Source: Vairimorpha necatrix
Lineage: Eukaryota
Reading direction: 5' to 3'
NCBI GenBank assembly: GCA_036630325.1
Contig: CP142734.1
Coordinates: 992,001-1,056,000, forward strand
Length of the DNA: 64,000 nt
Position numbers and translations under genes: made by a program. The notes beneath the pieces were generated by a model. It had not been told where the DNA came from. It searched no databases and saw only the letters and a program-made list of their open reading frames with translations. This document shows positions 6,113 through 55,895 of the stretch, piece after piece (position 1 is the first letter of the stretch; each line of letters begins with the position of its first letter).

Positions 6113-6304
6113 TTAATTAGAAAGATTAAATTAGAATGATTTAAATTAGTAAAGATTTGAATTAGTAAAGATTTAAATTAGAAAGATTTAAATTAGAAAA
6201 GATTTAAATTAGAAAAGATTTAAATTAGTAAAGATTTAATTAGTAAAGATTTAAATTAGAAATATTTAAATTAGTAAAGATTTAATGTATAATAAAGATT
6301 TAAT
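6113..6304. repeat. minisatellite, ~15-16 bp unit (AATTAG[A/T]AAAGATTTA), about 11 copies
   Basis: Directly visible tandem repeats between two convergent genes. Confidence 0.9.
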
Positions 6305-13587: not shown

Positions 13588-15873
13588 TGTTACCAGAAGG
13601 AGAGCTGGTTATTGAAGAAGGCTTTTTATTAGAAGAAGAACTATATTTATTTGGCATGTTTATTCTATTTAAGATTTCTTAAATAGTTTTAGTTTCGGAT
13701 CTGAAACAATCATGTTTCAGATCATTATGATTTGTTTCATCTTTCAGTTTTAGTCTGATTATTGGTGTGTGCAACACAGCCGGTAACACTCTCCCCTCCT
13801 TAGAACAAGGCTTCACTTCCAGGGAAGATGTTATATCCTCCAATATATCGTAGAACTTTTCATTTATAAGACTTAAGGTTTCAAAGGTTCTTCTAGATGT
13901 TCTTTTTGTATTAAGAAATGATCCTCTGTACTTTTTATTGAAAGGTCTCTTCATGTTCCTATATTTAGTTGAGACTAAGATTTCCATTTTATGCATATTA
14001 GCAAGAAGAAATCTTGGTTTTACCTCTTCGTATCTCAAAGAATGTTTACTGAGCATGTTTCTGCTCTGATTATCCGATATTTCATTTCTAGATAATGTAT
14101 AGTAAGACATTATGAACTTTTTACGCGGCTTCTTAAATATATTAAATATTATTCTTTTAAGTTTTATTCTAATGTTATTCAACTCACAGTGCAGAACCAT
14201 AAATAGTAACTTCCAGGTCAGTATTGGTCTCATACCTTCATCTATTTTAGACATTATTTCGGTAAGCACGATCTGCACGATCGCTACTTCCTCGCTCACC
14301 GCGCTTTTATTCACAAATAAAAATGTTTGTTTCTTCACTTCGTGCTCGTAAATTTCTTTTCTCAGAAGAGTTAAATAGTATCGTTTTCTCGGGTCGAGTT
14401 GGTGGTTCAATTTCGCTACACTTAAGTATGTAGAACATTCTTTAATCACGGGGGATTGACATACTTCTTCAATCATGGTTTCTTTTGCTTTTGTTTCTTC
14501 ATTGCATAGGCGCACACCATCGTCTATTTTCGTTACGATCGAACTTAATGAGTCCTTGGTGCTCGTATAGTCGTCTCTTCCCGCGCTTTTATTTACTTGC
14601 GCATTGTTTGGGTTGTTTCCATCGTGTCCGAGTATAATCTTTTGTAAGCAAACAATATGCCTGCTGGTCGATGTACTCATCTCGGTTAATCTCAGATTTC
14701 GATACTGAAGTGAGGTCTGAGCTGTTTCTGTACTTGCTCTTTTTTTAATCCGCATATCTTCTTGTTTTGACACTCTTTTGTCTATACTCTGTGGATAGTT
14801 TCGAATGCATTGGCCTCCTTTAGCCCTTCTTAGTTTCTTTCTATTAACTAAGGTTTTATCAACAAATGAGTTAAATTCACCTGATCCCAGGCGCATTCTT
14901 ACTACATCGCCATTAACGGTTCCTTCGACTGTAGTATCGTTCGTGTCTCTTGACACCGGATCTGCCTCGATTAAAAACACCTCTATTTCCTCGTGTTTAT
15001 TGCAGTCCTTAAGCAAGTGCTCACCTCCGCACTTATAGCATACTACCTTTCTCAGACTCTCTTTCGTCCGTGTAGTATCTGGCCTCGAAGTCCTTGCTTC
15101 CCTTGGCCTATTCTGTTCAGGTCTCTGCCTTGAACTCTCAATAAATTTATGATTTCTCTCATAAATCTTTAGTACAACGTCCCATGACGTTGCCTCTTCC
15201 ACCTTTTCTTTAAGTGACGGTGGGAAATATCTAGCCAACTCCTCCGTAATTTCAGACACGCTAACTCCTGCTTTCTTGTTAAGCTTCATTAGTTCGTATA
15301 TAAAGTTTTCAATTTTCATATTTACAGGTCCAGAGTATAGTCTCTTATAAAGCATTTTAATGGGATTAATTCCCTCCCGGAATTCTTCTTTCCCATATTT
15401 TGTTAGAAATTTCTGTTTGAATTCCATATATCCTTCCACCTCGTCTTCAATTACAGCCTCATACCATAGAAGAGCTGATTCCCCTAAGTATCTCTTAATG
15501 TAATTGAGCAGTTTTATATCATTCCATTCTCCCTCGAGGTATTTAAATTGATTAATCCAGACCCATGCATTCTCGCCTTGGGTACCGTTGAATTTCACCA
15601 TTGTGTTAGTAGATATCCCTAATTTTTCTAGTAGGTGGCCCAATTCGTTGGATTTCGAATAGTTGTCGCCAGTGTTACCAGAAGGAGAGCTGGTTATTGA
15701 AGAAGGCTTTTTATTAGAAGAAGAACTATATTTATTTGGCATGTTTATTCTATTTAAGATTTCTTAAATAGTTTTAGTTTCGGATCTGAAACAATCATGT
15801 TTCAGATCATTATGATTTGTTTCATCTTTCAGTTTTAGTCTGATTATTGGTGTGTGCAACACAGCCGGTAACA
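13588..15873 (-). mobile_element. non-autonomous LTR retrotransposon (Ty3/gypsy-derived), 2286 bp
   Basis: Identical 201-bp LTRs (13588-13788, 15673-15873) with TGTTACC...GGTAACA termini; 5-bp TSD AGTAT (13583-87, 15874-78); PBS TGGCGACAAC next to the 5' LTR; PPT AAGGAGGGGAGAG next to the 3' LTR. Confidence 0.95.
13679..15742 (-). CDS. Gag with zinc knuckle fused to degenerate pol remnants
   Basis: 687 aa; capsid-like KFNG...WINQF...YLGESALLWY; CYKCGGEHLLKDC knuckle; protease site reads LGSGE (no catalytic Asp); no YxDD or integrase DDE found. Confidence 0.8.
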   Translation of the reverse strand: MPNKYSSSSNKKPSSITSSPSGNTGDNYSKSNELGHLLEKLGISTNTMVKFNGTQGENAWVWINQFKYLEGEWNDIKLLNYIKRYLGESALLWYEAVIEDEVEGYMEFKQKFLTKYGKEEFREGINPIKMLYKRLYSGPVNMKIENFIYELMKLNKKAGVSVSEITEELARYFPPSLKEKVEEATSWDVVLKIYERNHKFIESSRQRPEQNRPREARTSRPDTTRTKESLRKVVCYKCGGEHLLKDCNKHEEIEVFLIEADPVSRDTNDTTVEGTVNGDVVRMRLGSGEFNSFVDKTLVNRKKLRRAKGGQCIRNYPQSIDKRVSKQEDMRIKKRASTETAQTSLQYRNLRLTEMSTSTSRHIVCLQKIILGHDGNNPNNAQVNKSAGRDDYTSTKDSLSSIVTKIDDGVRLCNEETKAKETMIEEVCQSPVIKECSTYLSVAKLNHQLDPRKRYYLTLLRKEIYEHEVKKQTFLFVNKSAVSEEVAIVQIVLTEIMSKIDEGMRPILTWKLLFMVLHCELNNIRIKLKRIIFNIFKKPRKKFIMSYYTLSRNEISDNQSRNMLSKHSLRYEEVKPRFLLANMHKMEILVSTKYRNMKRPFNKKYRGSFLNTKRTSRRTFETLSLINEKFYDILEDITSSLEVKPCSKEGRVLPAVLHTPIIRLKLKDETNHNDLKHDCFRSETKTI

Positions 15874-15905: not shown

Positions 15906-17783
15906 TTAATTGGGTTCTTTTAAATTCTCTAAAGCTGTCTGTATTTTATCCACTAAAAACCCATTAGTACTCTCAATCTTCATTAATATCTCCTGAAAAT
16001 CATATTTATTAATAATCCGTATTCTTTCTTCATACCCGTCATCTTTCCACGATAAATTAATCAAAATCCACACTAGTGACAGGTTAAAATCATGAATATT
16101 AAATAAATCTTTAAGTCTTAATAAAACATCATTGTCTTGTAACAACAAGTCTCTGAATTTTATATCATTTGCTGATATATTGACCATACAGTATAAAATG
16201 TGGATAAGTATCTTCTTATTGGTAGTGTTTATTAAGTGGATGAAGATTTTTTTGATTAAGTAATTGCTTATGTGGATCTTGTCACAGACTAGATTTCTAA
16301 TTAAATTGAATAAAACTTCCATCATTTGATTATCATAATATGAATTAGCACCATTACAAACTAATGTGTTATTATCTATATTATTATTATTATTAGATGT
16401 AGTAACATTATTTGATGTGGTATTATCTATATTGATATCTATATTATTAGATATATTGTTATTTGATGTAGTATTACTTAGTAAACTATTATTAGATGAC
16501 AGATTTAATGCATTATTATCTATACTGTTATTTGTGCTTTCTTCTATGTCACTTATAAATCCATTAGTATAATTTTCTGTAATATTTGTTTCATTGTGAT
16601 TAAAAATATTCTCAAACCATTCATCTCCATATTCTAAAAAGTTCATTTTACTCTCTACTGTATTATCATACAAATAATTCTTATATAACCTTAATATCTC
16701 ATACGGATACTCTCTACATCTCTCTACCTTCTCAAACCCTTTTAATTCAACAAAAATCTTCCTATAATTCCCAAACTCTAGTAATAAATTAGTAAAAATA
16801 TTCAATATAATTTTCTTATACGACCTTGTTATCCCTTTATAAATAATTTTATAATCAATATTACTATTTTCTTCTTTTAAAAATTTTATATTATCTTCTT
16901 CAAGTAAATTTAATAATATTTCTATAATAGGAAACTTTATAATTTCACTTCTTAACATAAATACTGATCTAGTTACATTTAATAAAACTAATAACGAATT
17001 TATATCTATAAAATCATTACTAAAATTTTTAAAAATTTTTGATAAATTTATATATTTCCTGTTTTCTTCATTATTAAGTGTCAAAATGTAATCTAAAAAC
17101 ATGTTCTGGTTTAATAAATCTAATTGTTTGTATTTTAAAAATTTTAAACCTTTATCATTATTTTTTAAAAAAAATGCTAAAAAAATTATAAAATTTTTTT
17201 CGTAAATACAATTTACATTAAAAATTTGTAAATCTGGATTTTTTAAAAGTAAAATGTTAAAAATAATAAATTTGTCTTTGTAACTTACAAAATCTAGAGA
17301 TTTTGTAAGTTCGTATGTATTAAAATCTGAATATTTGTAATTTAAAACATTTTTGATTGCTATAACACATGGACAATTTTGTTGAGAATTAGTTAATATT
17401 GAGGAATAAATATCAAATTTTTCTTGTAATTTGTATTTTGTACATATTTTTTTGTATATTTTGATGATTTTTATGTCCAAATATGTGTATGGATATTTTA
17501 TATTAGAAATATAAAGTTCTAACCTATTTAAAAAATTTTTAGGGATTTTTAGAATGTAGTAAATGTCAGTAATGACAGATATATCGTGAGGAGATAAGTT
17601 TATGAAGTTTGATTTGTTGTTTTTTGATAGTATGTCTTGTAATTCTAGATCTAGATTTGATTTTGGAGAATATGGAAGATTGTTTCTGAAATTAATTAAG
17701 TCTGGACATTTTACAGTGTTGATGTTTATATGGCCGATGTAGATGTCTACATTTGATATATGAGAATTTGTAAAATTGAACAT
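15906..17783 (-). CDS. armadillo-repeat protein, ARMC8/Vid28(Gid5)-like (putative)
   Basis: 625 aa. C-terminus ILYCMVNISA...SLVWILINLSWKDDGYEERI...LVDKIQTALENL resembles the ARMC8 C-terminal repeats as recalled. Asn-rich insert. Confidence 0.65.
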   Translation of the reverse strand: MFNFTNSHISNVDIYIGHININTVKCPDLINFRNNLPYSPKSNLDLELQDILSKNNKSNFINLSPHDISVITDIYYILKIPKNFLNRLELYISNIKYPYTYLDIKIIKIYKKICTKYKLQEKFDIYSSILTNSQQNCPCVIAIKNVLNYKYSDFNTYELTKSLDFVSYKDKFIIFNILLLKNPDLQIFNVNCIYEKNFIIFLAFFLKNNDKGLKFLKYKQLDLLNQNMFLDYILTLNNEENRKYINLSKIFKNFSNDFIDINSLLVLLNVTRSVFMLRSEIIKFPIIEILLNLLEEDNIKFLKEENSNIDYKIIYKGITRSYKKIILNIFTNLLLEFGNYRKIFVELKGFEKVERCREYPYEILRLYKNYLYDNTVESKMNFLEYGDEWFENIFNHNETNITENYTNGFISDIEESTNNSIDNNALNLSSNNSLLSNTTSNNNISNNIDINIDNTTSNNVTTSNNNNNIDNNTLVCNGANSYYDNQMMEVLFNLIRNLVCDKIHISNYLIKKIFIHLINTTNKKILIHILYCMVNISANDIKFRDLLLQDNDVLLRLKDLFNIHDFNLSLVWILINLSWKDDGYEERIRIINKYDFQEILMKIESTNGFLVDKIQTALENLKEPN

Positions 17784-24786: not shown

Positions 24787-25710
24787 TTAAAACCATCCTT
24801 CATACCTAGGAATCTCCCCACTGTGATAATCTCCCAAATGCTCTCCATCTGAAGTAGAAATTGGCACGTGTATATGTCCCGAACTAGTAGACCCTGACAC
24901 TAACCCTGTACCATGACCATGGGATACGGAATGCGCTCCACCTGCAGATGAAGCTTTTTTATTATCATTAATTATACTAAATCTCCCTTTACTTGGATCG
25001 ACAACAGCCGAAGTTTTATTAACTGGCGCATTTTCATAAAATTTTTTAACTAATTCTGGATCTTCCACTAAACTTTCCATAGGACTTTCATTATTCGGTC
25101 TCTCATGTAAAAGCGCATTCTTTTTCTGCATATCGCCTTCAACAAGCGCAGCTTGTCTCAAATCATTCAACCTTTTCAATTCATACTCGTCATGTACAGC
25201 AAATCCAAATGTATGAGGAGTCACTGCTATAATCGGCATTATAGGTTTAACTAGTTCTTCTTTGGGAGAATGTAGTATAGCATCAATTTCCGCTTTCTTT
25301 TTCTTTAAAAGATTCGCTTTCGCTCTTTTTTCTTCTGCTTCAACTTGTTTTAATTTGGTTTTTTGTAGACTTGCTCTTCGACTAGCGTCGAGACTTTCTT
25401 TTTCAGATTCAAGTGCACTAACTTGTAGTTCTACTATTTGTTGGTCTACACTTTTAGCTGTACCAGTTTGTAAAGCGTTAGACAGGACTGGTATCGAAGT
25501 ATATGCTTTACCATCACCTTTGTGTAAAACATCTTCAGTAATTACCATGGCTTTTATACCAGTATTACCTAGATTATGATTTACAGCCGTACTTCCTTGA
25601 CCACTTCCATTATTATTTGTAGACTCATGGACGATGTGACTACCTTCTATAGAAGCATGTGTCTGAGCTATATTTTTGGATATGAATATTATAAATAAGA
25701 AATCGATCAT
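24787..25710 (-). CDS. hypothetical secreted protein (signal peptide, coiled coil, G/S/H-rich tail)
   Basis: 307 aa ORF; MIDFLFIIFISKNIAQ N-terminus. Confidence 0.8.
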   Translation of the reverse strand: MIDFLFIIFISKNIAQTHASIEGSHIVHESTNNNGSGQGSTAVNHNLGNTGIKAMVITEDVLHKGDGKAYTSIPVLSNALQTGTAKSVDQQIVELQVSALESEKESLDASRRASLQKTKLKQVEAEEKRAKANLLKKKKAEIDAILHSPKEELVKPIMPIIAVTPHTFGFAVHDEYELKRLNDLRQAALVEGDMQKKNALLHERPNNESPMESLVEDPELVKKFYENAPVNKTSAVVDPSKGRFSIINDNKKASSAGGAHSVSHGHGTGLVSGSTSSGHIHVPISTSDGEHLGDYHSGEIPRYEGWF

Positions 25711-28472: not shown

Positions 28473-28605
28473 CAAATCTTTTACATTGTATTAATAAAAT
28501 TATAATAAAAGATTTGGCAAATCTTTTACATTGTATTAATAAAATTATAATAAAGATTTGGCAAATCTTTTACATTGTATTAATAAAATTATAATAAAGA
28601 TTTGG
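28473..28605. repeat. tandem repeat, 3 x ~44 bp
   Basis: CAAATCTTTTACATTGTATTAATAAAATTATAATAAA(A)GATTTGG three times, nearly identical. Confidence 0.92.
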
Positions 28606-28808
28606 AAAATTTTTCACTTGAAAATATTTAATGAAATATAAAATATTTTACATATTACAATTACAATTTATACAAAATTAAAAGTTGAGATTTTTAACTT
28701 GACATACAAAATTTTTTAAAGGTTTAATACAATGTTATATAAAATTTTAAACTACAAAATATTTCTGAAAAAAAAAATAATACTTGAGATTTTTATGAAA
28801 AATCATTT

Positions 28809-44204: not shown

Positions 44205-47200
44205 CTAGCGTATGCTTTCCCGTTTTGAAAACGGCATCGAAATGTTTAGTTTTATAATATGTATTTCCCCTTTTAATTTTTTTAAGTTTCCATTTTGGGA
44301 TGATTGAATTTGACAGGATGAAGACATCTTTTTCGAAAATACTTTTAAGTAACATATAAGGAGTAAAGTTTTTAAAAACACTTATGAGTCATATTGAAAT
44401 AATTTTGGAGACTTCTAAGCTCAATTTTTGACACTTATATTCAAAATCTTTATTTGGCAATTATTTTTAAAATTTTTCTAGAAGGGTTAAATAAATTCTA
44501 AAAAACGATTCTGACGATATTTTAGAACTGAGTTTTACATAAAAAGAATAATATGAATTAAAATGCATTAATATATAATATACGCACTCACAATTATCAA
44601 ATTAAAACGTTAAAATTAAATTTGATATTATATTAACGTAAAAGGCTCAAAATGTACCGTTTAGAAATTTCAAAACCACAAAAAAGAAGGGTTAAAAATT
44701 AAATAAAATTCTTTTATATATATGACTAGCGTATGCTTTCCCGTTTTGAAAACGGGATCGAAATGTTTAGTTTTTTAATATGTCTTTGATCCTTGAATTT
44801 TTTTGAGTTTACATTTTGGGATGATTGAATTTGATAGGATGAAATCATCTTTTTCAAAAATACTTTTTAGTAACATATTAGGAGTAAAGTTGAGTTAAAA
44901 ACACTTTTGAGTCATATTGAAATAATTTCGGGAACTTCTAAGCTCAATTTTTGACACTTATCATCAAAATCATTATTGGTTGAATGTTTTTACAATTTTT
45001 CGTGGAAGGGTCAAATAAATTCTAAAAAACGATTCTGACGATATTTTGGAACTGAGTTTAACAAAAATAATAATCAAAATTAAAAAGTATTAACTAATAA
45101 CATACACACTTAGAATAATCAAATTAAAGCAATAAATCTATATTTGATATCACAATAACACAATAAGCTATAATAAGAAGTTTAGATTTTACAAAATCAC
45201 AAAAAAGAGGGGTAAAAAATTAAATAAAATTCTTTTATATATATGATGATGACTAGCGTATGCTTTCCCGTTTTAAAAACGGGATCTAAATGTTTAGTTT
45301 TTAAATATGTATTCCTTCTTTTTATTTTTTTAAGTTTCCACTAGCGTATGCTTTCCCGTTTTGAAAACGGGATTAATGTGTGTGCGCATTGCATTTTTCT
45401 TTTGATTTACCATTTTGGGTTGGAATAAGAAAAGGAGAGAATATAATTCTTAACAACAGTAAATATTAGATTATTGGCAGACTTAAATACAGAATTCGAT
45501 TCAAATTATTATATAAAATTCAATGCTATAAATTCTAAATGTTTTTTAGTCAAAATTTGACACTTATCATTCGAAATCCGAAATGGTTAATTGTTTTATG
45601 AATTTTTGTGGAAGGGTTAAATAAATTCTAAAAAACGATTCTGACGATATTTTGGAACTGAGTTTTACAAAAAATTTATAAAAAACAAAAAAGTATTAAC
45701 ATATAGTATACGCATATACAATTGTCAAATTGAAACATTAAATCTAAAAACACTATTTTTATAACTTAATAAGATCAAAATACATAGTTATAAAATTTTA
45801 AAACCACAAAAAAGAGGGGTAAAAAATTAAATAAAATTCTTTTATATATATGATTTTGGATTGAATGAATTTAAAAAGGAGAAAAAATGATTTTTAAAAA
45901 TACTGTTTAGTATCATATAAGAAGTAATGTTGTTGTAAAACATTTTATAATCTCAATGAGATAATTTTGGAACTTCTAAGCTCATTTTTTGACACTTATA
46001 TTCAAAATCTTTATTTGTCAGATGTTTTTACAATTTTCCGTGGAAGGGTTAAATAAATTCTAAAAAACGATTCTGACGATATTTTGGAACTGAGTTTTAC
46101 AAAAATAATAAATAGAATAAAAATGCATTAATATACAGTATACGCACATATGATAGCCAAAATCCTCCTTTGAGCTTATATTTGATATCATAATAACACA
46201 ATAAGCTATAATAAGAAGTTTAGAAATTTCAAAGTCACAAAAAAGAGGGGTAAAAAATTAAATAAAATTCTTTTATATATATGACTAGCGTATGCTTTCC
46301 CGTTTTGAAAACGGGATTGATATATTGTTCATAGCATTTATTTCTACTTTATTTTTTGAGTTTCCATTTTGGGAAAAATAAATTTGAAAAGGAAAAAACA
46401 TGAATTTACAAAATACTTTTTAGTAACATATAAGGAGTAAAGTTGAGCTAAAAACATTTAATAATTATAATGAGATAATTTTGGAAACTTCTAAGCTCAA
46501 TTTTTGACACTTATATTTTACTTATTTTTTGGTTAATGTTTTTGTGAATTTTTTCTAGAAGGGTTAAATAAATTCTAAAAAACGATTCTGACGATATTTT
46601 GGAACTAAGTTTTACGAAAATAATAATCAAAATAAAAATGCATTTACACATAATATACACACTTACAATATTTATATCGAAACATTAGATGTAAATTTGA
46701 TATTTTTAATACACAATAAGCTGTAATAAGAAGTTTAAAGTTTACAAATTCATAAAAAAGAGGGGTAAAAAATTAAATAAAATTCTTTTATATATATGAT
46801 GACTAGCGTATGCTTTCCCGTTTTTGAAAACGGGATCTAAATGTTTAGTTTGCTAATAATATGTCTTATATCCTTAAATTTTGTTGAGTCTCCATTTTAT
46901 GAATGAATTTGAAAAGGAGAAAACATGATTTTAAAAAATACTTTTTAGTAACATATAAGGAGTAAAGTTGAGCTAAAAACATTTAATAATTATAATGAGA
47001 TAATTTTGGGAACTTCTAAGCTCAAGTTTTGATACTTATATTCAACTTTTTCTTTGGTTAATATTTTTGTGAATTTTTTCTAGAAGGGTTAAATAAATTC
47101 TAAAAAACGATTCTGACGATATTTTGGAACTGAGTTTTCTAAAAATAAGAATTAAAATGAAAATGCATTAACATACAGTACACGCACTTATGAAAGTCAA

Positions 47201-48900
47201 AATCCTTCAATGAGTTTATATTTGATATTACAATGGCACAATAAGCTATAATAAGAAGTTTAGATTTTACAAAATCACAAAAAAGAGGGGTAAAAAATTA
47301 AATAAAATTCTTTTATATATATGATGACTAGCGTATGCTTTCCCGTTTTGAAAACGGGATCTAAATGTTTAGTTTTTTAATATGTATTTCCCCTTTTGAT
47401 TTTGTTAAGTTTCCATTTTGGGATGAATGAATTTGAAAAGGAGAAAACATGATTTTGAAAAATACTTTTTAGTGACATAAAAGGAGTAAAGTTGAGCTTA
47501 AAACATTTATTAATTATAATGAGATGATTTTGTGAACTTCTAAGCTCATTTTTTGACACTTTTATTCAACATTCTTTTTGGTACATGTTTTTGGGATTTT
47601 TTTCTAGAAGGGTTAAATAAATTCTAAAAAATGATTCTGACAATATTTTGGAACTGAGTTTAACAAAAATAATTATATGAATTAAAATGCATTAATATAT
47701 AATATACGCACTCACAATTATTAAATAAAAACGTTAAAATTAAATTTGATATTATATTAACATAAAAGGCCCAAAACATATCGTTTAGAAATTTCAAAAC
47801 CACAAAAAAGAGGGGTAAAAAATTAAATAAAATTCTTTTATATATATGACTAGCGTATGCTTTCCCGTTTTGAAAACGGGATCTAAATGTTTAGTTTTAT
47901 AATATGTCGCTCCTCGGTGAATTTTGGTATGTTTCCATTTTGGGATGATTGAATTTGACAGGATGAAGACATCTTTTTCAAAAATACTTTTTAGTGACAT
48001 AAAATGATCAAGTTGAGTTCAAAACACTTATGAGTCTCATTGAAATAATTTTGGGAACTTCTAAGCTCAATTTTTGACACTTACATGTAAGATCTTCATT
48101 GGTTATATGTTTTTGCAATTTTTCTAGAAGGGTTAAATAAATTCTAAAAAACGATTCTGGCGATATTTTGGGACCAAGCTTTCCGAAAATAACAATCTAA
48201 ATAAAAATGTATTAACATACAACATACGCATCAACGATAGTCAAAATACTTCATTGAGTTTATATTTGATATTACAATGGCGCAATAAGTTATAATAAGA
48301 AGTTTATATTTTTTAAGACCACAAAAAAGAGGGGGTAAAAAATTAAATAAAATTCTTTTATATATATGATGACTAGCGTATGCTTTCCCGTTTTTGAAAA
48401 CGGGATCTAAATGTTTAGTTTGCTAATATGTCTTATATCCTTAAATTTTGTTGAGTTTCCATTTTTTGGATAACTGAATTTAAAAAGGAGAAAACATGAT
48501 TTTGAAAAAAACTTTTTAATAACATTTAAAGAGTAAAATGAAGTTGAAAACACTTATTAATCTTAATGAAATATGTTTAAAACTCTTACAGCTCAGTTTT
48601 TGACACTTACATTCAATTTCTTCTTTGTATTTTGTTTTTAAAATTTTTCTAGAAGGGTTAAATAAATTCTAAAAAACGATTCTGACGATATTTTGGAACT
48701 GAGTTTTACAAAACAAAGAATTAAAATGGAAATGTATTAACATACAGTACACGCACATATGATAGTCAACATCCTTCCTTGAGTTTATATTTGATATTAT
48801 AATAAGTTAATAAGACCAAAATATACAGTGTGGAAATTTCAAATTCACAAAAAAGAGGGGTAAAAAATTAAATAAAATTCTTTTATATATATGATGATGA
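44205..48900 (-). mobile_element. array of nine ~513-528 bp non-autonomous Helitron-like elements
   Basis: Units: 44205-44725, 44726-45252, 45253-46284 (interrupted), 45341-45853 (nested), 46285-46802, 46803-47327, 47328-47849, 47850-48372, 48373-48900. On the minus strand each starts TC(ATC)nATATATATAAAAG and ends in hairpin TCCCGTTTT-C-AAAACGGGA + 9 nt + CTAG. Flanks are A and T with no TSD. Confidence 0.85.
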
Positions 48901-48941
48901 TTACGGAATTACATATAGCATAAATATGGGAGGTTGGTGCT

Positions 48942-49020
48942 GTATAAACGAAAACCAAGACATAAATACTGCTGAATTCCCTATATATTGTAGTCATTTT
49001 AATATGCAAATATCTTCCAT
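48942..49020 (+). repeat. left copy of 79-bp direct repeat flanking the MULE
   Basis: Matches 50756-50834 at 78/79 positions. Confidence 0.93.
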
Positions 49021-50755
49021 CGGTAACCGTAAATTCGCCTGTAGGCGAATTTACGGTTTTTCGCCAAAAATTAAAATTTGCTCGTTTTTTCGCCAAAAAA
49101 AATACAAAAAAAAATTTATTGGTATTAAGAAAGAAATAAAAGATTTGAAAAGCTTTATTATAATTTTAATTAAAATTTATTGGTTATAAAAAAAGCATTT
49201 ATAATAAAAATAGGTTTATTGAATTAACTTATTCGCATTTGAAATTCACGTGTTGCAGTAAAGCATTCATGTACTCTTCACGAGAATAATGTTTATAATT
49301 TTTAACGATTATTCTAATTTTTTCCTCCGCTTTTTGGGTTTTTTTAGCTTCAAATAATCCTTTTTTATAACGTTTTAGATTATATATATCCATTTCTTCA
49401 CAATCGAGTATTCTTGAAATAAAAAGAGCGATATTTGGATTTCTTGTCTCCATCCTCTTGTTTATGGTTCTATTCCAGCTTTCTGCATTGTTAGAAGTCC
49501 GAGGAATTTCATTTTTTACCCTATCAAATACATTCCAAAAATTTATATAGGCGACAGCTCTCCCACCATTATCTTCTCTAGTTACATGGGAAACTAAATA
49601 ATTATTTTCAAAGTATAACTGAAAGTTAGCTGTGGTTGTAATTGAATTATCTTTTATAAATTTCTTAATATCTTCATAAAAAACCAGAACATCTCGTATT
49701 GGCACAAAAGCTAATCTAAGAATCTTTTTGAATACTAGATTATAGTTAGAATCGTTTTTAAACTTTTCTATGTCCCCCATTGCCCCGACTCTTTTATAGG
49801 CTGCCTGCCCAAGATGAAACAAGCATCCATTACAGTTTGCTCCAGGGAAAGATATTCGTAATGCATTGACCAATCCTCTCTCAAAATCAGTCACAAAGTT
49901 CTTAACATTCATAGTAACTAATTCCTTGCATTTATCGAAGGCTCTAGAATATGACCTTTCACTTTTTCCCTTGAGTAAAATATAAATGTATGGAAAACTT
50001 TTGCCAAATATATGTCCATGAAAGACGACAATTTGGTAAAATCCTTGAGGAGAAGATTTAAACGTTCCATCGACAACGAACGTATCTATTTTTTCAATCA
50101 TACTTTTTTTGAATTCTGAAAAAAATATTATAAATCTATCATTATCCTGCATACCACTATCAAATCTAAGAAAACGATTTTTTTTAGAATCTACTTGCAG
50201 GACTTCGGGTATATCCATAATGCAACCAGTTATAAATCCGAGTCTTGAATTTCTTGTTCGTTTGATTGTATCTCTTAAATATTCTATGGAAGGCATTTTA
50301 GTAATATCTAAGCTGGTTGACAATGCTGGGAGTTGTTTTTTTATTATTTCTAATGAGTTTTCATTACTTGTAGCAACTTGTTCTTTTATTTTTTTAATAG
50401 TTCTTTTAAACATGCATTTCTCAGGTACTGGTTCATGTGAATGAATAACTTTTTTAACGATTTCGTTTTGTTCATTCATTATAATGGCACCTCTACAAGA
50501 CCTATTACTGCACCTCCATCGCCTAGTGCCGTCCTTATTGTAGTCTAAAGTGTATATCTGATCTTCATAGATAAGATTTTGCCCTCCACGTTGACCTTTA
50601 AAAATTTCAAAGTTGTCGTTCAATTTTTTTAAGGGTAGATTTTCGGCGAAAAAAAAGGAAAAATTTTATGGGCAAAATTTTTGGCGAAAAACAACCATTT
50701 TTGAACTTTTGGCGAAAAACCGTAAATTCGCCTGTAGGCGAATTTACGGGTACCC
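49021..50755 (-). mobile_element. Mutator-like (MULE) DNA transposon, 1735 bp
   Basis: Terminal inverted repeats of ~50 bp or more (CGGTAACCGTAAATTCGCCT.. / ..AGGCGAATTTACGGGTACCC), each with an internal palindrome and subterminal TTTTCGCC repeats, enclosing a transposase ORF. Confidence 0.92.
49229..50623 (-). CDS. FLYWCH-MULE DDE transposase
   Basis: WRCSNRSC...HSH zinc finger; VVDGTFK, VTDFERGL, GCLFHLGQ, RTSNNAESWN motifs; the frame opens at TTG, not ATG. Confidence 0.9.
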   Translation of the reverse strand: MNDNFEIFKGQRGGQNLIYEDQIYTLDYNKDGTRRWRCSNRSCRGAIIMNEQNEIVKKVIHSHEPVPEKCMFKRTIKKIKEQVATSNENSLEIIKKQLPALSTSLDITKMPSIEYLRDTIKRTRNSRLGFITGCIMDIPEVLQVDSKKNRFLRFDSGMQDNDRFIIFFSEFKKSMIEKIDTFVVDGTFKSSPQGFYQIVVFHGHIFGKSFPYIYILLKGKSERSYSRAFDKCKELVTMNVKNFVTDFERGLVNALRISFPGANCNGCLFHLGQAAYKRVGAMGDIEKFKNDSNYNLVFKKILRLAFVPIRDVLVFYEDIKKFIKDNSITTTANFQLYFENNYLVSHVTREDNGGRAVAYINFWNVFDRVKNEIPRTSNNAESWNRTINKRMETRNPNIALFISRILDCEEMDIYNLKRYKKGLFEAKKTQKAEEKIRIIVKNYKHYSREEYMNALLQHVNFKCE

Positions 50756-51395: not shown

Positions 51396-52228
51396 GGGTG
51401 AAAGATACCACAGTACCCCCATTTGAGGGTGTTTACTTTATTTTTTCGAACCCCAAAAACGAAGTGCAAAATAAAGGAGGAGCAGGAAGGAGACAAAAAT
51501 TACTAAGCACTTACGACATTAAAAATAACAAATAAATATATATTTATGTACAGAATTATATTTTAATACAAGTTTTAATAATCATTTTAAGTATTGTGTC
51601 TTTTTTGTCCTTCTTATATTTTCAATTTTTTTTTAATTTTTGGTTTATTATAAAAGTAGATTTTCTTCAAAAATCTACTTTTATGATAAAACAAAAATTA
51701 AAATTATAATATTATTTATTTAAGAAAATTTAAATAAATATTCAACGATCTATAAAGATTGTTAAATCAAAAAATTTAATTTAAAATTTGAGAAGTTACT
51801 AAGAAAATATACTTTTATGAATATATTCTTTTTTAAATTGAATTTCGTACACAAGAGTATATTTATTTAATGTTTTTTATATTTAAAGATGCAAGTAATT
51901 TGAGTGCACCTGATTGCTTCTCCTTTATTTTGCACTTTGTTTTTGGGGTTCGAAAAAATAAAGTGAACACCCTTAGAGGGGGCGTGTTGGTCCGCAATTC
52001 TAAAAAATCAGAAGGGTAAAAAATGCTTGTTAATTTATATAAGTGTAAAAACTTGTATTAAAATATGATTCTGTACATAAATATATATTTATTTGTTATT
52101 TTTAATGTCGAAGTGCTTAGTAATTTTTGTCTCCTTCTTGCTCCTCCTTTTTTTTGCACTTAGTTTTTGGGGTTCGAAAAAATAAAGTAAACACCCTCAA
52201 ATGGGGGGTACTGTGGTACCCCACCTCC
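51396..52228. mobile_element. non-coding long-TIR element (MITE/foldback-like)
   Basis: ~170-180 bp inverted repeats (about 51396-51575 and 52048-52228); TAATTTTTG duplicated on both sides (51387-95, 52229-37); no ORF. Confidence 0.85.
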
Positions 52229-53666: not shown

Positions 53667-55895
53667 ATGGATGTCGTTAAATTTGCTTTTACTATTTTAT
53701 TTATAAAATCGGGTCAATATGTTTCTAATCAGATAAATTTGGTACTAATAAAAAAAATAGAAAGCGGTGATTATACTACAATTGATTATGATAAACGATA
53801 TTTGAGAATTTTAATGGATTTTGATATCAGACAAAATAATATTAATGTTTATATTGTTGTAGAGATCAAAGGTTTTCAAAGAAGACAGGAAACTAAAAAT
53901 GTAAAGATTAATTGCACTAACAAATCTATTTTAACTGTAGTTAAAGAATTTAAACACATTATTTTATTGGAACATAGAAATTATTGGCTGATTATAACGT
54001 TTTGATTTATAATCCGTTATTTTTCCAAGTTCGTCCTATTTTTAAGAACTTAATTGAACATATAAAAAACGAAAATATCAAACAAAAAAAATTAAGACTC
54101 AAGGATGAACTATTTTATGAATACATCATGGAAAATGATGTCCTTTGGTACAAAGTATTTACAAATTTAAAATTTAAGACTAGCATTGTCCAGGGTAGAT
54201 TATGTTTTCCACAATCTCCAATTTCTTATATTAAAAGGAGCAATTCCCGCTACATATGTATTTGTATAAATATAGACAAGGTTCATTATTTCTTTGAATT
54301 AAATATCAAAGAACTTGGTTCTGAAAATCTTATTCCACATACAATTATGATAAGAGAACATATTAATGAAATTGACCACCAAATATGTATTCACCTTAAA
54401 GAATTGTATAAATTTATATATGTTGATAAAATCGTTAAGCGTAATATATCTTATTTTTCGGTTTGTACGTTAAATAAAATTGAATTTTATCACAATATAT
54501 TCAAAATTAAAATGGATAATGACGAAATACGTTTTACACAAAATTACAAGGAATATATATATTCTTTACAACATGAAGCCATTTTTACAAATTCGACATC
54601 TTTGGAATTTCAAGAGTTTTTTAGAAAAACCTATTATATAAAGACTTTAGGTGAATGTCATAACGAAGTGGAATTGCTTTTTAGATTATTAGAAACAGGT
54701 GGTCGTGCAGAATTCTTCTTAAAAAAAATCTTAAATAAAAGAGGAAGTGCAATTTATTTGATTTTACTTCAAATATTGTTGTCTGATAATTTGTATAAAG
54801 AATTTAATCTAAGTAAAATTTTAAGAAACGAAGAATTTGATGAAACATCGAAAAATCTGCTTATAGAAAAAATAATAACAAATTTATGCAATTGTAGTTT
54901 TTTAGCGAGTACTTTCCTGATAAAAATCTGTTTATTATTGGAAGTTGAACGTTTTATAAATGAAAATGATGTTAGTGATAAACCAATATTATTAATTTTG
55001 AGCAATATCGCCGCTCTTATCAAGAAAAAAGCAGGGTTTATACCATGTGATAATCAATATAATGTCACTAAAAAGATCGATTTAATTGAAATATTCCACG
55101 TCGCTGTAAAATTTCATCTTAAAGATATTCAGGCATACATGAACAATATATGGAAGCAAATTTTTTCGATAACATCATTATATACAGGATATGAGCAAAA
55201 TTTGTGTATACTTGAATATGTACATTTTTATATTGAAAAAGATAGAGTTTTTGATTTTTTTTGCTTAAATAATATTTTAGTTGAAAATAATAATGAAATA
55301 TTAAGAAAAAAATTATCAGAAAACACAAGAAACCAACGTATTAACGAAGCACTATATCGTTATAGAAAAGAATTGAAAATATTGTTTATAGTTTTTATGA
55401 AAAAAGATTATCTACGGCACTATGTAAAATTAAGCATGATGCTTTAAATAAAAAAATTAATTATTTATATGATAAAAATAGAACTAAAATGTTTGAAAAA
55501 CGATTACGTCAAAACGGAGTAAATGTAATTGAAAAGATCTTTAGTAATAAATGTTTGACAGAAGATGTATCCAATGTATCGGCAGGAATTAATGCAGAAT
55601 TGCTTTATGAATGTAAAAAAGACGAACTTGAAATTTTCTCTCGAGATTTAAACAAGTTAATTAATTTAAATATAAGAAATACTATAAAAAATGATTTTTA
55701 AATATCTCTTGAATCTCTTTTGGACAATGAAATTAGTAACAAAAAAATTTTTAAAGAATTTGCGGAAAAAAAATTAAAAAAATTCGAATGTTGCTGTGTG
55801 AAAATGAATTATCTGAAATTCTGAATGATTACAATATAGGAGTGAAATTTCACAGAAATTTAACCAAGATATTGGAAAATTATGATAAAAAATAA
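53667..55895 (+). pseudogene. multiply frameshifted secreted-family gene, probable paralogue of 37154-39038
   Basis: ccccatATG start. Consecutive ORFs 53667-54005, 53984-55447 and 55489-55701 lie in different frames, followed by a further coding-like tail. Shared patterns with the 37-kb gene (W..YN...Y.PL; LLFRLLETGG vs LFYRLLHRRG). Confidence 0.6.

Follow-up and report, generated by a model that had tools for sequence, protein, structure and literature searches.

A tandem array of probable non-autonomous Helitrons with one unit nested inside another in Vairimorpha necatrix

How does a complete repeat unit come to lie inside another unit of the same tandem array? The question is raised by a 64-kb stretch of Vairimorpha necatrix DNA (the window, 64,000 nucleotides in full), in which nine units of one orientation form a single array. 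We delimited this array by motif searches and a profile (Table 1). Tandem Repeats Finder (maximum period 500) missed it, because the units exceed the longest period that the program considers. The nhmmer search found full-length units only and no truncated ones in the array region, and the array starts and stops exactly at unit termini. On the minus strand, the array is flanked by an A before the first TC and by a T after the last CTAG. The spacers at the inter-unit junctions are 0, 3, or 6 nt long, and CTAG is joined directly to TC at three of the seven junctions.

Table 1. Positions of the array, its units, and their features in the window. The 5' and 3' parts are named in the Helitron sense.
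Feature	Positions	Strand	Remarks
Whole array	44205..48894	minus	8 head-to-tail units of 515-522 bp and one nested 513-bp unit; both ends are unit termini
U1, 521 bp	44205..44725	minus	Hairpin weakened by one stem mismatch (6-bp stem, -7.1 kcal/mol)
U2, 521 bp	44726..45246	minus	From MAFFT and nhmmer profile
Spacer TGATGA (TCATCA on minus) between U2 and U3	45247..45252	minus	
U3 (host), 3' part, 88 bp	45253..45340	minus	Hairpin and CTAG end; loop base of hairpin changed
U4 (inserted), 513 bp, probable non-autonomous Helitron of a divergent subfamily	45341..45853	minus	Complete
U4 palindrome, 19 nt, 8-bp stem, 3-nt loop	45354..45372	minus	13 nt separate it from the 3' end; matched exactly on the plus and minus strands
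U4 conserved internal block (approximate coordinates)	45609..45666	minus	Common to 9/9 units
U4 5' terminal block (left terminal sequence)	45804..45853	minus	Nearly invariant across units
U3 (host), 5' part, 431 bp	45854..46284	minus	Starts with TC at 46284
U5, 515 bp	46285..46799	minus	Followed by TGA spacer, 46800-46802
U6, 522 bp	46803..47324	minus	Mosaic, partly U9-like and partly U5-like; TGA spacer next, 47325-47327
U7, 522 bp	47328..47849	minus	Mosaic with U1-like ends and U6-like middle
U8, 520 bp	47850..48369	minus	Followed by TGA spacer, 48370-48372
U9, 522 bp, 5'-most unit	48373..48894	minus	Plus strand: TGATGA next, then unique DNA
Flanking base	44204		A on plus, T on minus, right after the last CTAG-3'
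Flanking base	48895		T on plus, A on minus, right before the first 5'-TC

The initial annotation had described one unit as split by another, and all of its coordinates turned out to be correct. A 519-bp unit, U3 (45253-46284), is interrupted at 45340/45854 by U4, a full 513-bp unit (45341-45853) that runs from CTAGCG... to ...TATATGA on the plus strand. AGTTTCCA terminates at 45340, and TTTTGG picks up again at 45854, so the outer pieces of U3 measure 88 and 431 bp. In silico excision of U4 left 519 bp that aligned end to end with the seven array neighbours, without a gap at the join. The MAFFT alignment of the rejoined U3 with the other eight units showed no base lost or doubled there; the lone gap column at this point is due to an extra T in U9. 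A parse independent of MAFFT was obtained by searching the whole window with nhmmer and a profile HMM of the unit. It assigned 45253-45340 to profile positions 1-88, 45853-46284 to positions 88-520, and 45341-45853 to positions 1-520. Both methods agree on the nesting.

U4 lies between A and T of U3 (host site CCA|TTT) in the same orientation as its host. The nesting had been taken to fix the element termini exactly. It does reveal the ends of the element, but an A is found both at 45340, the base before the insert, and at 45853, the last base of the insert, with an overlap at profile position 88. The sequence alone therefore sets the boundaries of U4 only within 1 nt. Two alternatives, a one-base shift of the frame and a 512-bp element that duplicates a single A, are set aside only through the canonical Helitron ends. 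The claim that no target sequence was duplicated or lost holds in that the rejoined host aligns cleanly, but a 1-bp duplication of A is inseparable from it without outside knowledge of Helitrons, and 'no duplication' is thus to be read through the Helitron model. In this single event, the insertion separates A from T and duplicates no target base, subject to the 1-nt A/A ambiguity. The site had also been ascribed to the minus strand; the position between A and T stands, but AT is its own reverse complement and says nothing about the strand. The A|T dinucleotide alone is weak evidence, because it is found at 66/518 positions in the host (12.7%). The nesting exceeds chance in two respects: the insert is full-length, with neither end off by a single base, and the two host breakpoints coincide. 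We infer that each of these has a probability of about 1 in 520 under random breaks.

Inspection of the unit ends on the minus strand showed a 5'-TC start in 9/9 units, each opening with TCATATATATAA, and a CTAG-3' end in 9/9 units, which fits the CTRR criterion. All nine carry a 19-nt palindrome 13 nt from the 3' end, within the size (16-20 nt) and the upstream distance (~10-15 nt) used to recognize Helitrons. In eight units, the hairpin has an 8-bp stem with a folding energy of -9.3 kcal/mol, and none of 200 shuffled sequences folded as well; the 6-bp stem of U1 was equalled by 3 of 200 shuffles. The stem sequence does not vary among the units, and covariation consequently gives no support. 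The palindrome of U4 is likely the transposition terminator. Terminal inverted repeats were not detected when the 5' end was compared with the reverse complement of the 3' end in three units (445-499 of 500 shuffles reached the observed score), and none of the units contains a long open frame.

The ends described above match those of Helraiser, a published active Helitron. Canonical non-autonomous elements of the Helitron1 type, such as HelibatN, which is mobilised by Helraiser, resemble the present units in the 5'-TC and CTAG-3' ends, insertion at A|T without duplication, the absence of inverted repeats, and the lack of coding capacity. The palindrome near the 3' end is 19 nt long in both cases, located 13 nt from the end here and 11 nt from it in Helraiser. 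Head-to-tail tandem arrays are also on record for the canonical group. In contrast to HelibatN, the host is a microsporidian with a GC content of ~25% and the array consists of strongly diverged, mosaic units instead of near-identical copies; the likeness described here is one of structure.

These findings indicate that the ~520-bp units are non-autonomous canonical Helitrons on the minus strand and that U4 transposed cleanly into U3, a reading to which we assign a probability of about 85%. The view that single units are independently mobile, already put forward in the annotation, which named no transposon family, gains support from the Helitron termini and the hairpin in 9/9 units and from the exact nesting at A|T. 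The family assignment is putative and based on structure. None of the 34 open frames scanned in the 64-kb window matched Helitron_like_N or PIF1. Rep/Hel open frames are described for N. bombycis, N. ceranae, and other microsporidia (PMC4202319; PMC3486916; PMC5012567). The 64-kb window contained no solo copy or empty site, and the profile gave no matches outside the array, where blastn yielded four weak fragments out of 104 HSPs. Neither a 22-nt exact pattern from the 3' end nor a degenerate pattern of 35 nt representing the internal block matched anything in a collection of genome contigs that consists of bacteria and archaea only, a result that says little about eukaryotic relatives.

The less ordinary point about the array is that its units are mosaics diverged by 12-31%, with nearly invariant ends. 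The eight array units show pairwise identities of 76.4-88.4%. U4 is 68.8-73.1% identical to the other units, and its alignment columns ~100-230 are essentially unrelated to theirs. Variable columns amount to 17/136 in the two termini and one internal block, as compared with 287/408 elsewhere (Fisher p = 1e-33). The 5' terminal block has 4/50 variable columns, the internal block (columns 295-345) has 9/51, and columns 513-544 are invariant in 9/9 units. Adjacent units were not more alike than others (82.4% identity versus 82.3% for non-neighbours/all pairs, permutation p = 0.45), and the identity tables gave no recurring pair or triplet of unit types that would mark a higher-order repeat. U6 and U7 are clear recombinants, with corrected p values of about 1e-8 and 8e-8, respectively.

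With these data, we considered how the array was formed. Tentatively, and with a confidence slightly short of even odds, we propose that it is not one decayed rolling-circle concatemer, but that diverged members were inserted serially in the same orientation, with recombination adding to the pattern. Near-invariant ends combined with diverged interiors favour serial insertion in one orientation over an origin as a single rolling-circle concatemer, and decay in place is disfavoured because of the uneven distribution of the variable columns. The spacers of 0, 3, or 6 nt are likewise unlike the constant junction of a concatemer. Three considerations count against serial insertion. Since U6 and U7 are recombinants, gene conversion involving dispersed copies could likewise have preserved the ends where they stand; the conserved blocks may be selected for some role at the locus; and the published explanation of such arrays is rolling-circle generation (PMC12001565; PMC5876387).

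The strongest competing account concerns the formation of the array only, not the Helitron identity of its units. One or a few rolling-circle events, through read-through of the 3' terminator or repeated replication of a circle, would have produced a concatemer that later diverged and underwent recombination or gene conversion, with U4 arriving afterwards as an ordinary insertion. We regard this course of events as possible, at clearly less than even odds. Tandem arrays of Helitrons in plants, bats, frogs, and flies have been explained in this way (PMC5876387; PMC12001565; bioRxiv 10.1101/2021.06.02.446622). The circles of Helraiser bear the same precise CTAG-TC junction that occurs at the direct junctions of this array; the units are all full length and share a single orientation, and the mosaic units show that recombination acted. 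Against this, the array units are 12-24% apart, yet their termini are almost invariant, a pattern that neutral decay in place cannot generate. The variation in junction length and the lack of any greater similarity between neighbours than between distant units also speak against a concatemer. Helitron-derived arrays and satellites in Myotis, maize, Xenopus, and on the Drosophila pseudoobscura Y are similar in that whole elements are repeated in head-to-tail order, the 3' end of one directly meeting the 5' end of the next; they are ascribed to rolling-circle replication, whereas the conserved ends, divergent interiors, and variable spacers found here better fit serial insertion.

The remaining alternatives concern the nesting itself. 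The array could be an ordinary satellite and the nesting non-transpositional, either because an excised circular monomer was reintegrated at a random break or because of a complex rearrangement. The units are tandem, non-coding, and AT-rich, and eukaryotes commonly form extrachromosomal circles from tandem repeats. However, circles formed by recombination open at an arbitrary phase, while the insert is bounded exactly by TC and CTAG, as are the array boundaries. The ends also carry the full Helitron signature, the termini are the constrained parts of the conservation profile, and the array starts and stops in phase, which makes this origin highly improbable. A classical satellite grown by unequal crossover was rejected. 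Such a satellite is expected to end at arbitrary phase, to have its most similar units side by side, and to diverge evenly over the unit; here the ends are in phase, neighbours are not the closest relatives, and divergence is uneven. The annotation had rightly noted that unequal crossover cannot yield the nesting: crossover or collapse joins homologous positions, and a full unit at profile position 88 is not expected from it.

An assembly artefact deserves mention, since tandem repeats are easily misassembled, but the chance that it explains the nesting appears minimal. Collapse or misjoining of repeats falls at homologous positions, whereas here a full unit of ~72% identity sits at position 88 of another, and both junctions are base-exact at the element's own termini, which an assembler has no reason to make. 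Equally remote is a different transposon class, that is, the 512-bp element with a 1-bp A duplication formally permitted by the A at 45340 and 45853, or an element of the Helitron2/Helentron type. The match of the 5'-TC and CTAG-3' ends and of the hairpin spacing to canonical Helitrons is close, and we know of no transposon class that combines a 1-bp duplication with such ends. Helitron2/Helentron non-autonomous elements, such as DINE-1 and the oyster Cg170 carriers, are also rolling-circle elements and often carry or form tandem repeats. These elements carry short inverted repeats, terminal or subterminal, and target T|T sites, in contrast to the present units, which lack inverted repeats of either kind and have an A|T target; this type was discarded on both grounds. 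A MITE was dismissed as well, given the absence of terminal inverted repeats and of a 2-10 bp target duplication.

For the preferred reading, a non-autonomous Helitron transposed into a resident copy, the steps of transposition are drawn from Helitron biology established by experiments with Helraiser. A Rep/helicase transposase, with its gene at another genomic locus, would nick the source copy between the flanking A and the 5' TC. One strand would then be peeled off in the 5' to 3' direction as far as the signal formed by the hairpin and CTAG. The peeled strand would give rise to a circular intermediate, which would be joined into an A|T site that by chance lay within a resident copy. Under serial insertion, new copies would enter at the 5' end of a resident copy, either at its A|TC junction or at A|T sites of a small TCA microsatellite located there.

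A more far-reaching version, which we find doubtful, is that the array represents a satellite in the making by 'self-homing' at the cleavage site of the transposase itself (the A|TC junction or the adjacent TCA|TCA). It would grow by one diverged member at a time, with no change of orientation and without rolling-circle read-through or unequal crossover, and the same element type would also explain a Nosema ceranae repeat described in 2009. The latter was presented as a 'novel dispersed repeat' that is non-coding, found on 250 contigs, often tandem, and unclassified in that description (Cornman et al. 2009, PMC2685015). It was reported to comprise two or more subtypes with unclear boundaries and a well-conserved internal motif (PMC2685015). 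N. ceranae belongs to the same microsporidian clade, and the core of its repeat is about 700 bp as opposed to about 520 bp here; the two are compared by description only, as a lead. Lep1-like non-autonomous Helitrons of Nosema bombycis (PMC4038834) likewise have a 5'-TC end. They are about 200-450 bp long, with a 3' CTRY end and acquired sequence, and their presumed origin is the insect host; this likeness, too, is drawn from the description.

Helitron tandem arrays, insertion at A|T, and Helitron genes in the Nosema/Vairimorpha clade, to which the host belongs, are all already in print. Nesting at A|T is textbook behaviour for Helitrons, as are their arrays, and nothing is overturned. The base-level ends provide a means of annotating a microsporidian non-autonomous Helitron family genome-wide, rather than as a satellite or unknown repeat. 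The locus indicates that a Helitron transposase was active at some time in a lineage noted for its reduced genomes. If serial insertion targeted to the ends is true, it would constitute a second route from Helitron to satellite, beside rolling-circle over-replication.

Two further ideas on the units were dropped. A motif of the internal block that resembles part of the 5' terminal sequence was considered as a copy of the 5' end, but the local alignment of the first 55 nt with the rest of the unit was no better than that of shuffled sequences; the observed score was reached by 48, 97, 104, and 184 of 300 shuffles in the four units tried. An RNA family was rejected after an Rfam scan of 43900-49300 (E <= 1), which gave two matches far under the gathering scores, attributable to chance: snoR09 (29.5 bits versus 50) and mir-7563 (28.9 versus 80). 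The mir-7563 match falls in a neighbouring MULE inverted repeat.

The array at 44205-48894 comprises nine ~520-bp units, all in one orientation. On the plus strand, the unit starts with CTAGCGTATGC and ends with TATATATATGA. Eight units (U1, U2, U3, U5, U6, U7, U8 and U9; 515-522 bp) lie head to tail, the ninth (U4) lies within U3, and both array ends are element termini. The 11-nt start motif had nine plus-strand matches and no minus-strand match. A window search for the 17-nt end motif returned nine exact matches, all inside the array region, and six others with 1-3 mismatches, 4.2 of any quality being expected by chance. The hairpin motif gave 20 matches (both strands counted) at nine places, all within 44218-48405, against 0.12 expected. 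Tandem Repeats Finder did not call the array because of its period limit of 500. In the remaining 59 kb, the unit profile HMM detected no unit copies or fragments, and only 4 of 104 blastn HSPs fell outside the array, all weak and short.

The initial annotation had described U4 as nested in U3 at an A|T dinucleotide, and its coordinates proved exact. We excised U4 in silico and aligned the rejoined U3 (519 bp) with the other eight units. The join showed neither gap nor surplus, and the single gap column there reflects an extra T in U9. A whole-window scan with the profile HMM yielded a parse that agreed with the manual coordinates, without analyst input. Its one-position overlap arises because A is both the base preceding the insert and the final base of the insert. 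The sequence alone therefore places the ends to within one base, and insertion without duplication is indistinguishable from a 1-bp duplication of A. Thus, the clean join stood, but the claim of exactly fixed termini without target duplication had to be relaxed by this one base. A|T accounts for 66 of the 518 junctions of U3 (12.7%) and is self-complementary; taken singly, the site is weak evidence for insertion. The nesting rises above chance because both ends of the insert are intact to the base and the two host breakpoints coincide. The observation was confirmed, and its interpretation as transposition of a single unit was supported.

Features of the array and its surroundings (window coordinates)
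Feature	Position	Strand	Remarks
U3, left piece	45253-45340		host unit before insert; profile positions 1-88
U4	45341-45853		513-bp inserted unit; profile positions 1-520
U3, right piece	45854-46284		host unit resumed; profile positions 88-520 at 45853-46284
Spacer	45247-45252		between units
Spacer	46800-46802		between units
Spacer	47325-47327		between units
Spacer	48370-48372		between units
TGA x2	48895-48900		after last unit
MULE element, compact	49022-50754		starts 128 bp right of array
MULE inverted repeats	49022-49098 / 50678-50754		77 nt, 83% complementary
FLYWCH-MULE transposase frame	49229-50623	minus	464 aa; FLYWCH zinc finger and MULE transposase domains
Foldback-like inverted repeat, large	51416-52207
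Foldback arms, pair one	51416-51512 / 52111-52207		97 nt, 97% complementary
Foldback arms, pair two	51514-51622 / 52002-52110		109 nt, 83% complementary
Ty3/gypsy-type pol frame	57234-60752	minus	1172 aa, intact-looking; protease, reverse transcriptase, RNase H and integrase domains
Open frames without Pfam match	13679-15742, 15906-17783, 24787-25710, 37130-39038, 42726-43859, 53984-55447

On the minus strand, the ends are 5'-TC...CTAG-3' in 9/9 units, and a 19-nt palindrome finishes 13 nt short of the 3' end. As single-stranded DNA, the palindrome folds into an 8-bp stem in eight of the nine units (-9.3 kcal/mol; 0/200 shuffles as good); that of U1 has one stem mismatch and a 6-bp stem (3/200 shuffles as good). 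No inverted repeats between the unit ends were found in the three units tested, where 445-499 of 500 shuffles scored at least as high as observed. The array contains no long open frame; the longest on either strand is 69 aa, without conservation between units. A precedes and T follows both U4 and the whole array on the minus strand. TC/CTAG ends, a palindrome near the 3' end, an A|T site and non-inverted ends define canonical Helitrons, and on this basis we read the units as non-autonomous members of that group. Helraiser, a reconstructed active element, is reported to have 5'-TC/CTAG-3' ends, a 19-bp palindrome 11 nt from the 3' end, A|T insertion and circles with a precise CTAG-TC junction (PMC4778049); A|T insertion without duplication is described as a Helitron hallmark (PMC4778049; PMC4038834). 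We accordingly read the U4 nesting as an ordinary case of a Helitron inserting into a resident copy, inside a Helitron array. It is a further instance of a known element type; only the non-clonal composition of the array merits a genome-wide look.

The eight head-to-tail units share 76.4-88.4% pairwise identity, and U4 shares 68.8-73.1% with them. U4 has the common termini, and its alignment columns from ~300 onward (the plus-strand-end half) match the others at 61-100% identity, depending on the segment; at columns 101-200, identity drops to 44-52%, essentially unrelated sequence. Shared termini with an unrelated segment are the usual picture for Helitron subfamilies. Across the units, 17 of 136 columns vary in two blocks at the termini plus one internal block, versus 287 of 408 elsewhere (Fisher p = 1e-33), and the longest invariant runs are columns 1-18, 307-323 and 513-544. 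The internal block of ~50 nt (columns 295-345; 9/51 variable) is nearly as conserved as the termini and is kept in each of the nine units, even the divergent U4 (about 45609-45666). Its resemblance to the unit 5' end was not above chance, and Rfam returned just two sub-threshold matches, assigning it no role.

Neighbouring units are no more alike than non-neighbours (82.4% vs 82.3% identity, permutation p = 0.45). U7 is U1-like at its ends and U6-like in the middle (U1/U6/U1; corrected p about 8e-8), and U6 alternates U9-like and U5-like segments (U9/U5/U9; corrected p about 1e-8); two further triplets were weaker as recombinants (0.03 and 1). Such recombinant units, mosaics built from a few segment variants, indicate frequent exchange between copies. 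Spacers of 0, 3 or 6 nt separate adjacent units and consist of 0, 1 or 2 copies of TGA, which reads TCA on the minus strand. In Helitron sense, these spacers repeat the element's first three bases; they may represent variable 5' ends, or what is left of a host TCA microsatellite hit by insertions.

Helitron tandem arrays with head-to-tail junctions are already in print, rolling-circle replication being the published explanation (PMC12001565; PMC5876387; bioRxiv 10.1101/2021.06.02.446622). A single rolling-circle concatemer decaying in place would predict even divergence and constant junctions, but the divergence is very uneven along the unit and the junctions vary. Serial insertion of diverged family members is therefore favoured over such a concatemer. 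Insertions would target the A|TC junction at the resident copy's 5' end, which combines an A|T site with the transposase's own cleavage site, or else A|T sites in a short run of TCA at that end, with recombination among copies as a further contributor to the pattern. The conservation of the unit ends could also be maintained by gene conversion with dispersed copies, or by selection on the array locus itself.

Published accounts report Helitron Rep/Hel frames in N. bombycis, N. ceranae, Hamiltosporidium, Vavraia and Trachipleistophora (PMC4202319; PMC3486916), Lep1-like non-autonomous Helitrons in N. bombycis (PMC4038834) and tabulated Helitron content for Nosema species and forty newer microsporidian genomes (PMC5012567; PMC12558613). 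Among the best literature matches, judged by title and abstract, we found no description of microsporidian arrays of non-autonomous Helitrons. Unit patterns had no matches in genome contigs, of prokaryotes only. In the N. ceranae genome paper, a dispersed repeat present on 250 contigs is left unclassified; it is non-coding, 'often occurs as tandem copies', and has two or more subtypes and ill-defined boundaries (PMC2685015). Compared by description, it resembles our unit in being non-coding with tandem copies, and it may be an element of this kind. The conserved promoter-like motif it is said to hold (PMC2685015) may or may not be related to our internal block.

The array is set in a transposon-rich stretch, in which the foldback-like repeat may be another non-autonomous element. 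None of the 34 window open frames searched against Pfam (20 + 14 frames) carries a Helitron Rep or PIF1-type helicase domain, and the Helitron transposase, if still present, is outside the window. Seven open frames of 279-687 aa had no Pfam match at E <= 0.001; one of 377 aa (42726-43859) stops 346 bp short of the array. Two short tandem repeats bear no relation to the Helitron array: 3.2 copies of a 44-bp unit (96% matches) at 28473-28614, just downstream of the aminopeptidase gene, and 12 copies of a 16-bp unit at 6115-6303.

The window has a GC content of about 25%, and its long uninterrupted frames code for eukaryotic proteins, among them kinesin, Rad21, HECT and M1 aminopeptidase. Among named relatives, the aminopeptidase best matches those of Vairimorpha bombi (66% identity) and Nosema granulosis (56%); many other microsporidia come next. 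The host therefore belongs to the Nosema/Vairimorpha clade of microsporidia. Two relatives at 35-40% identity, standing among the microsporidian matches, carry the labels of bacterial or archaeal metagenome bins (Romboutsia sp., Nanoarchaeota); they may come from eukaryotic contigs that were misbinned.
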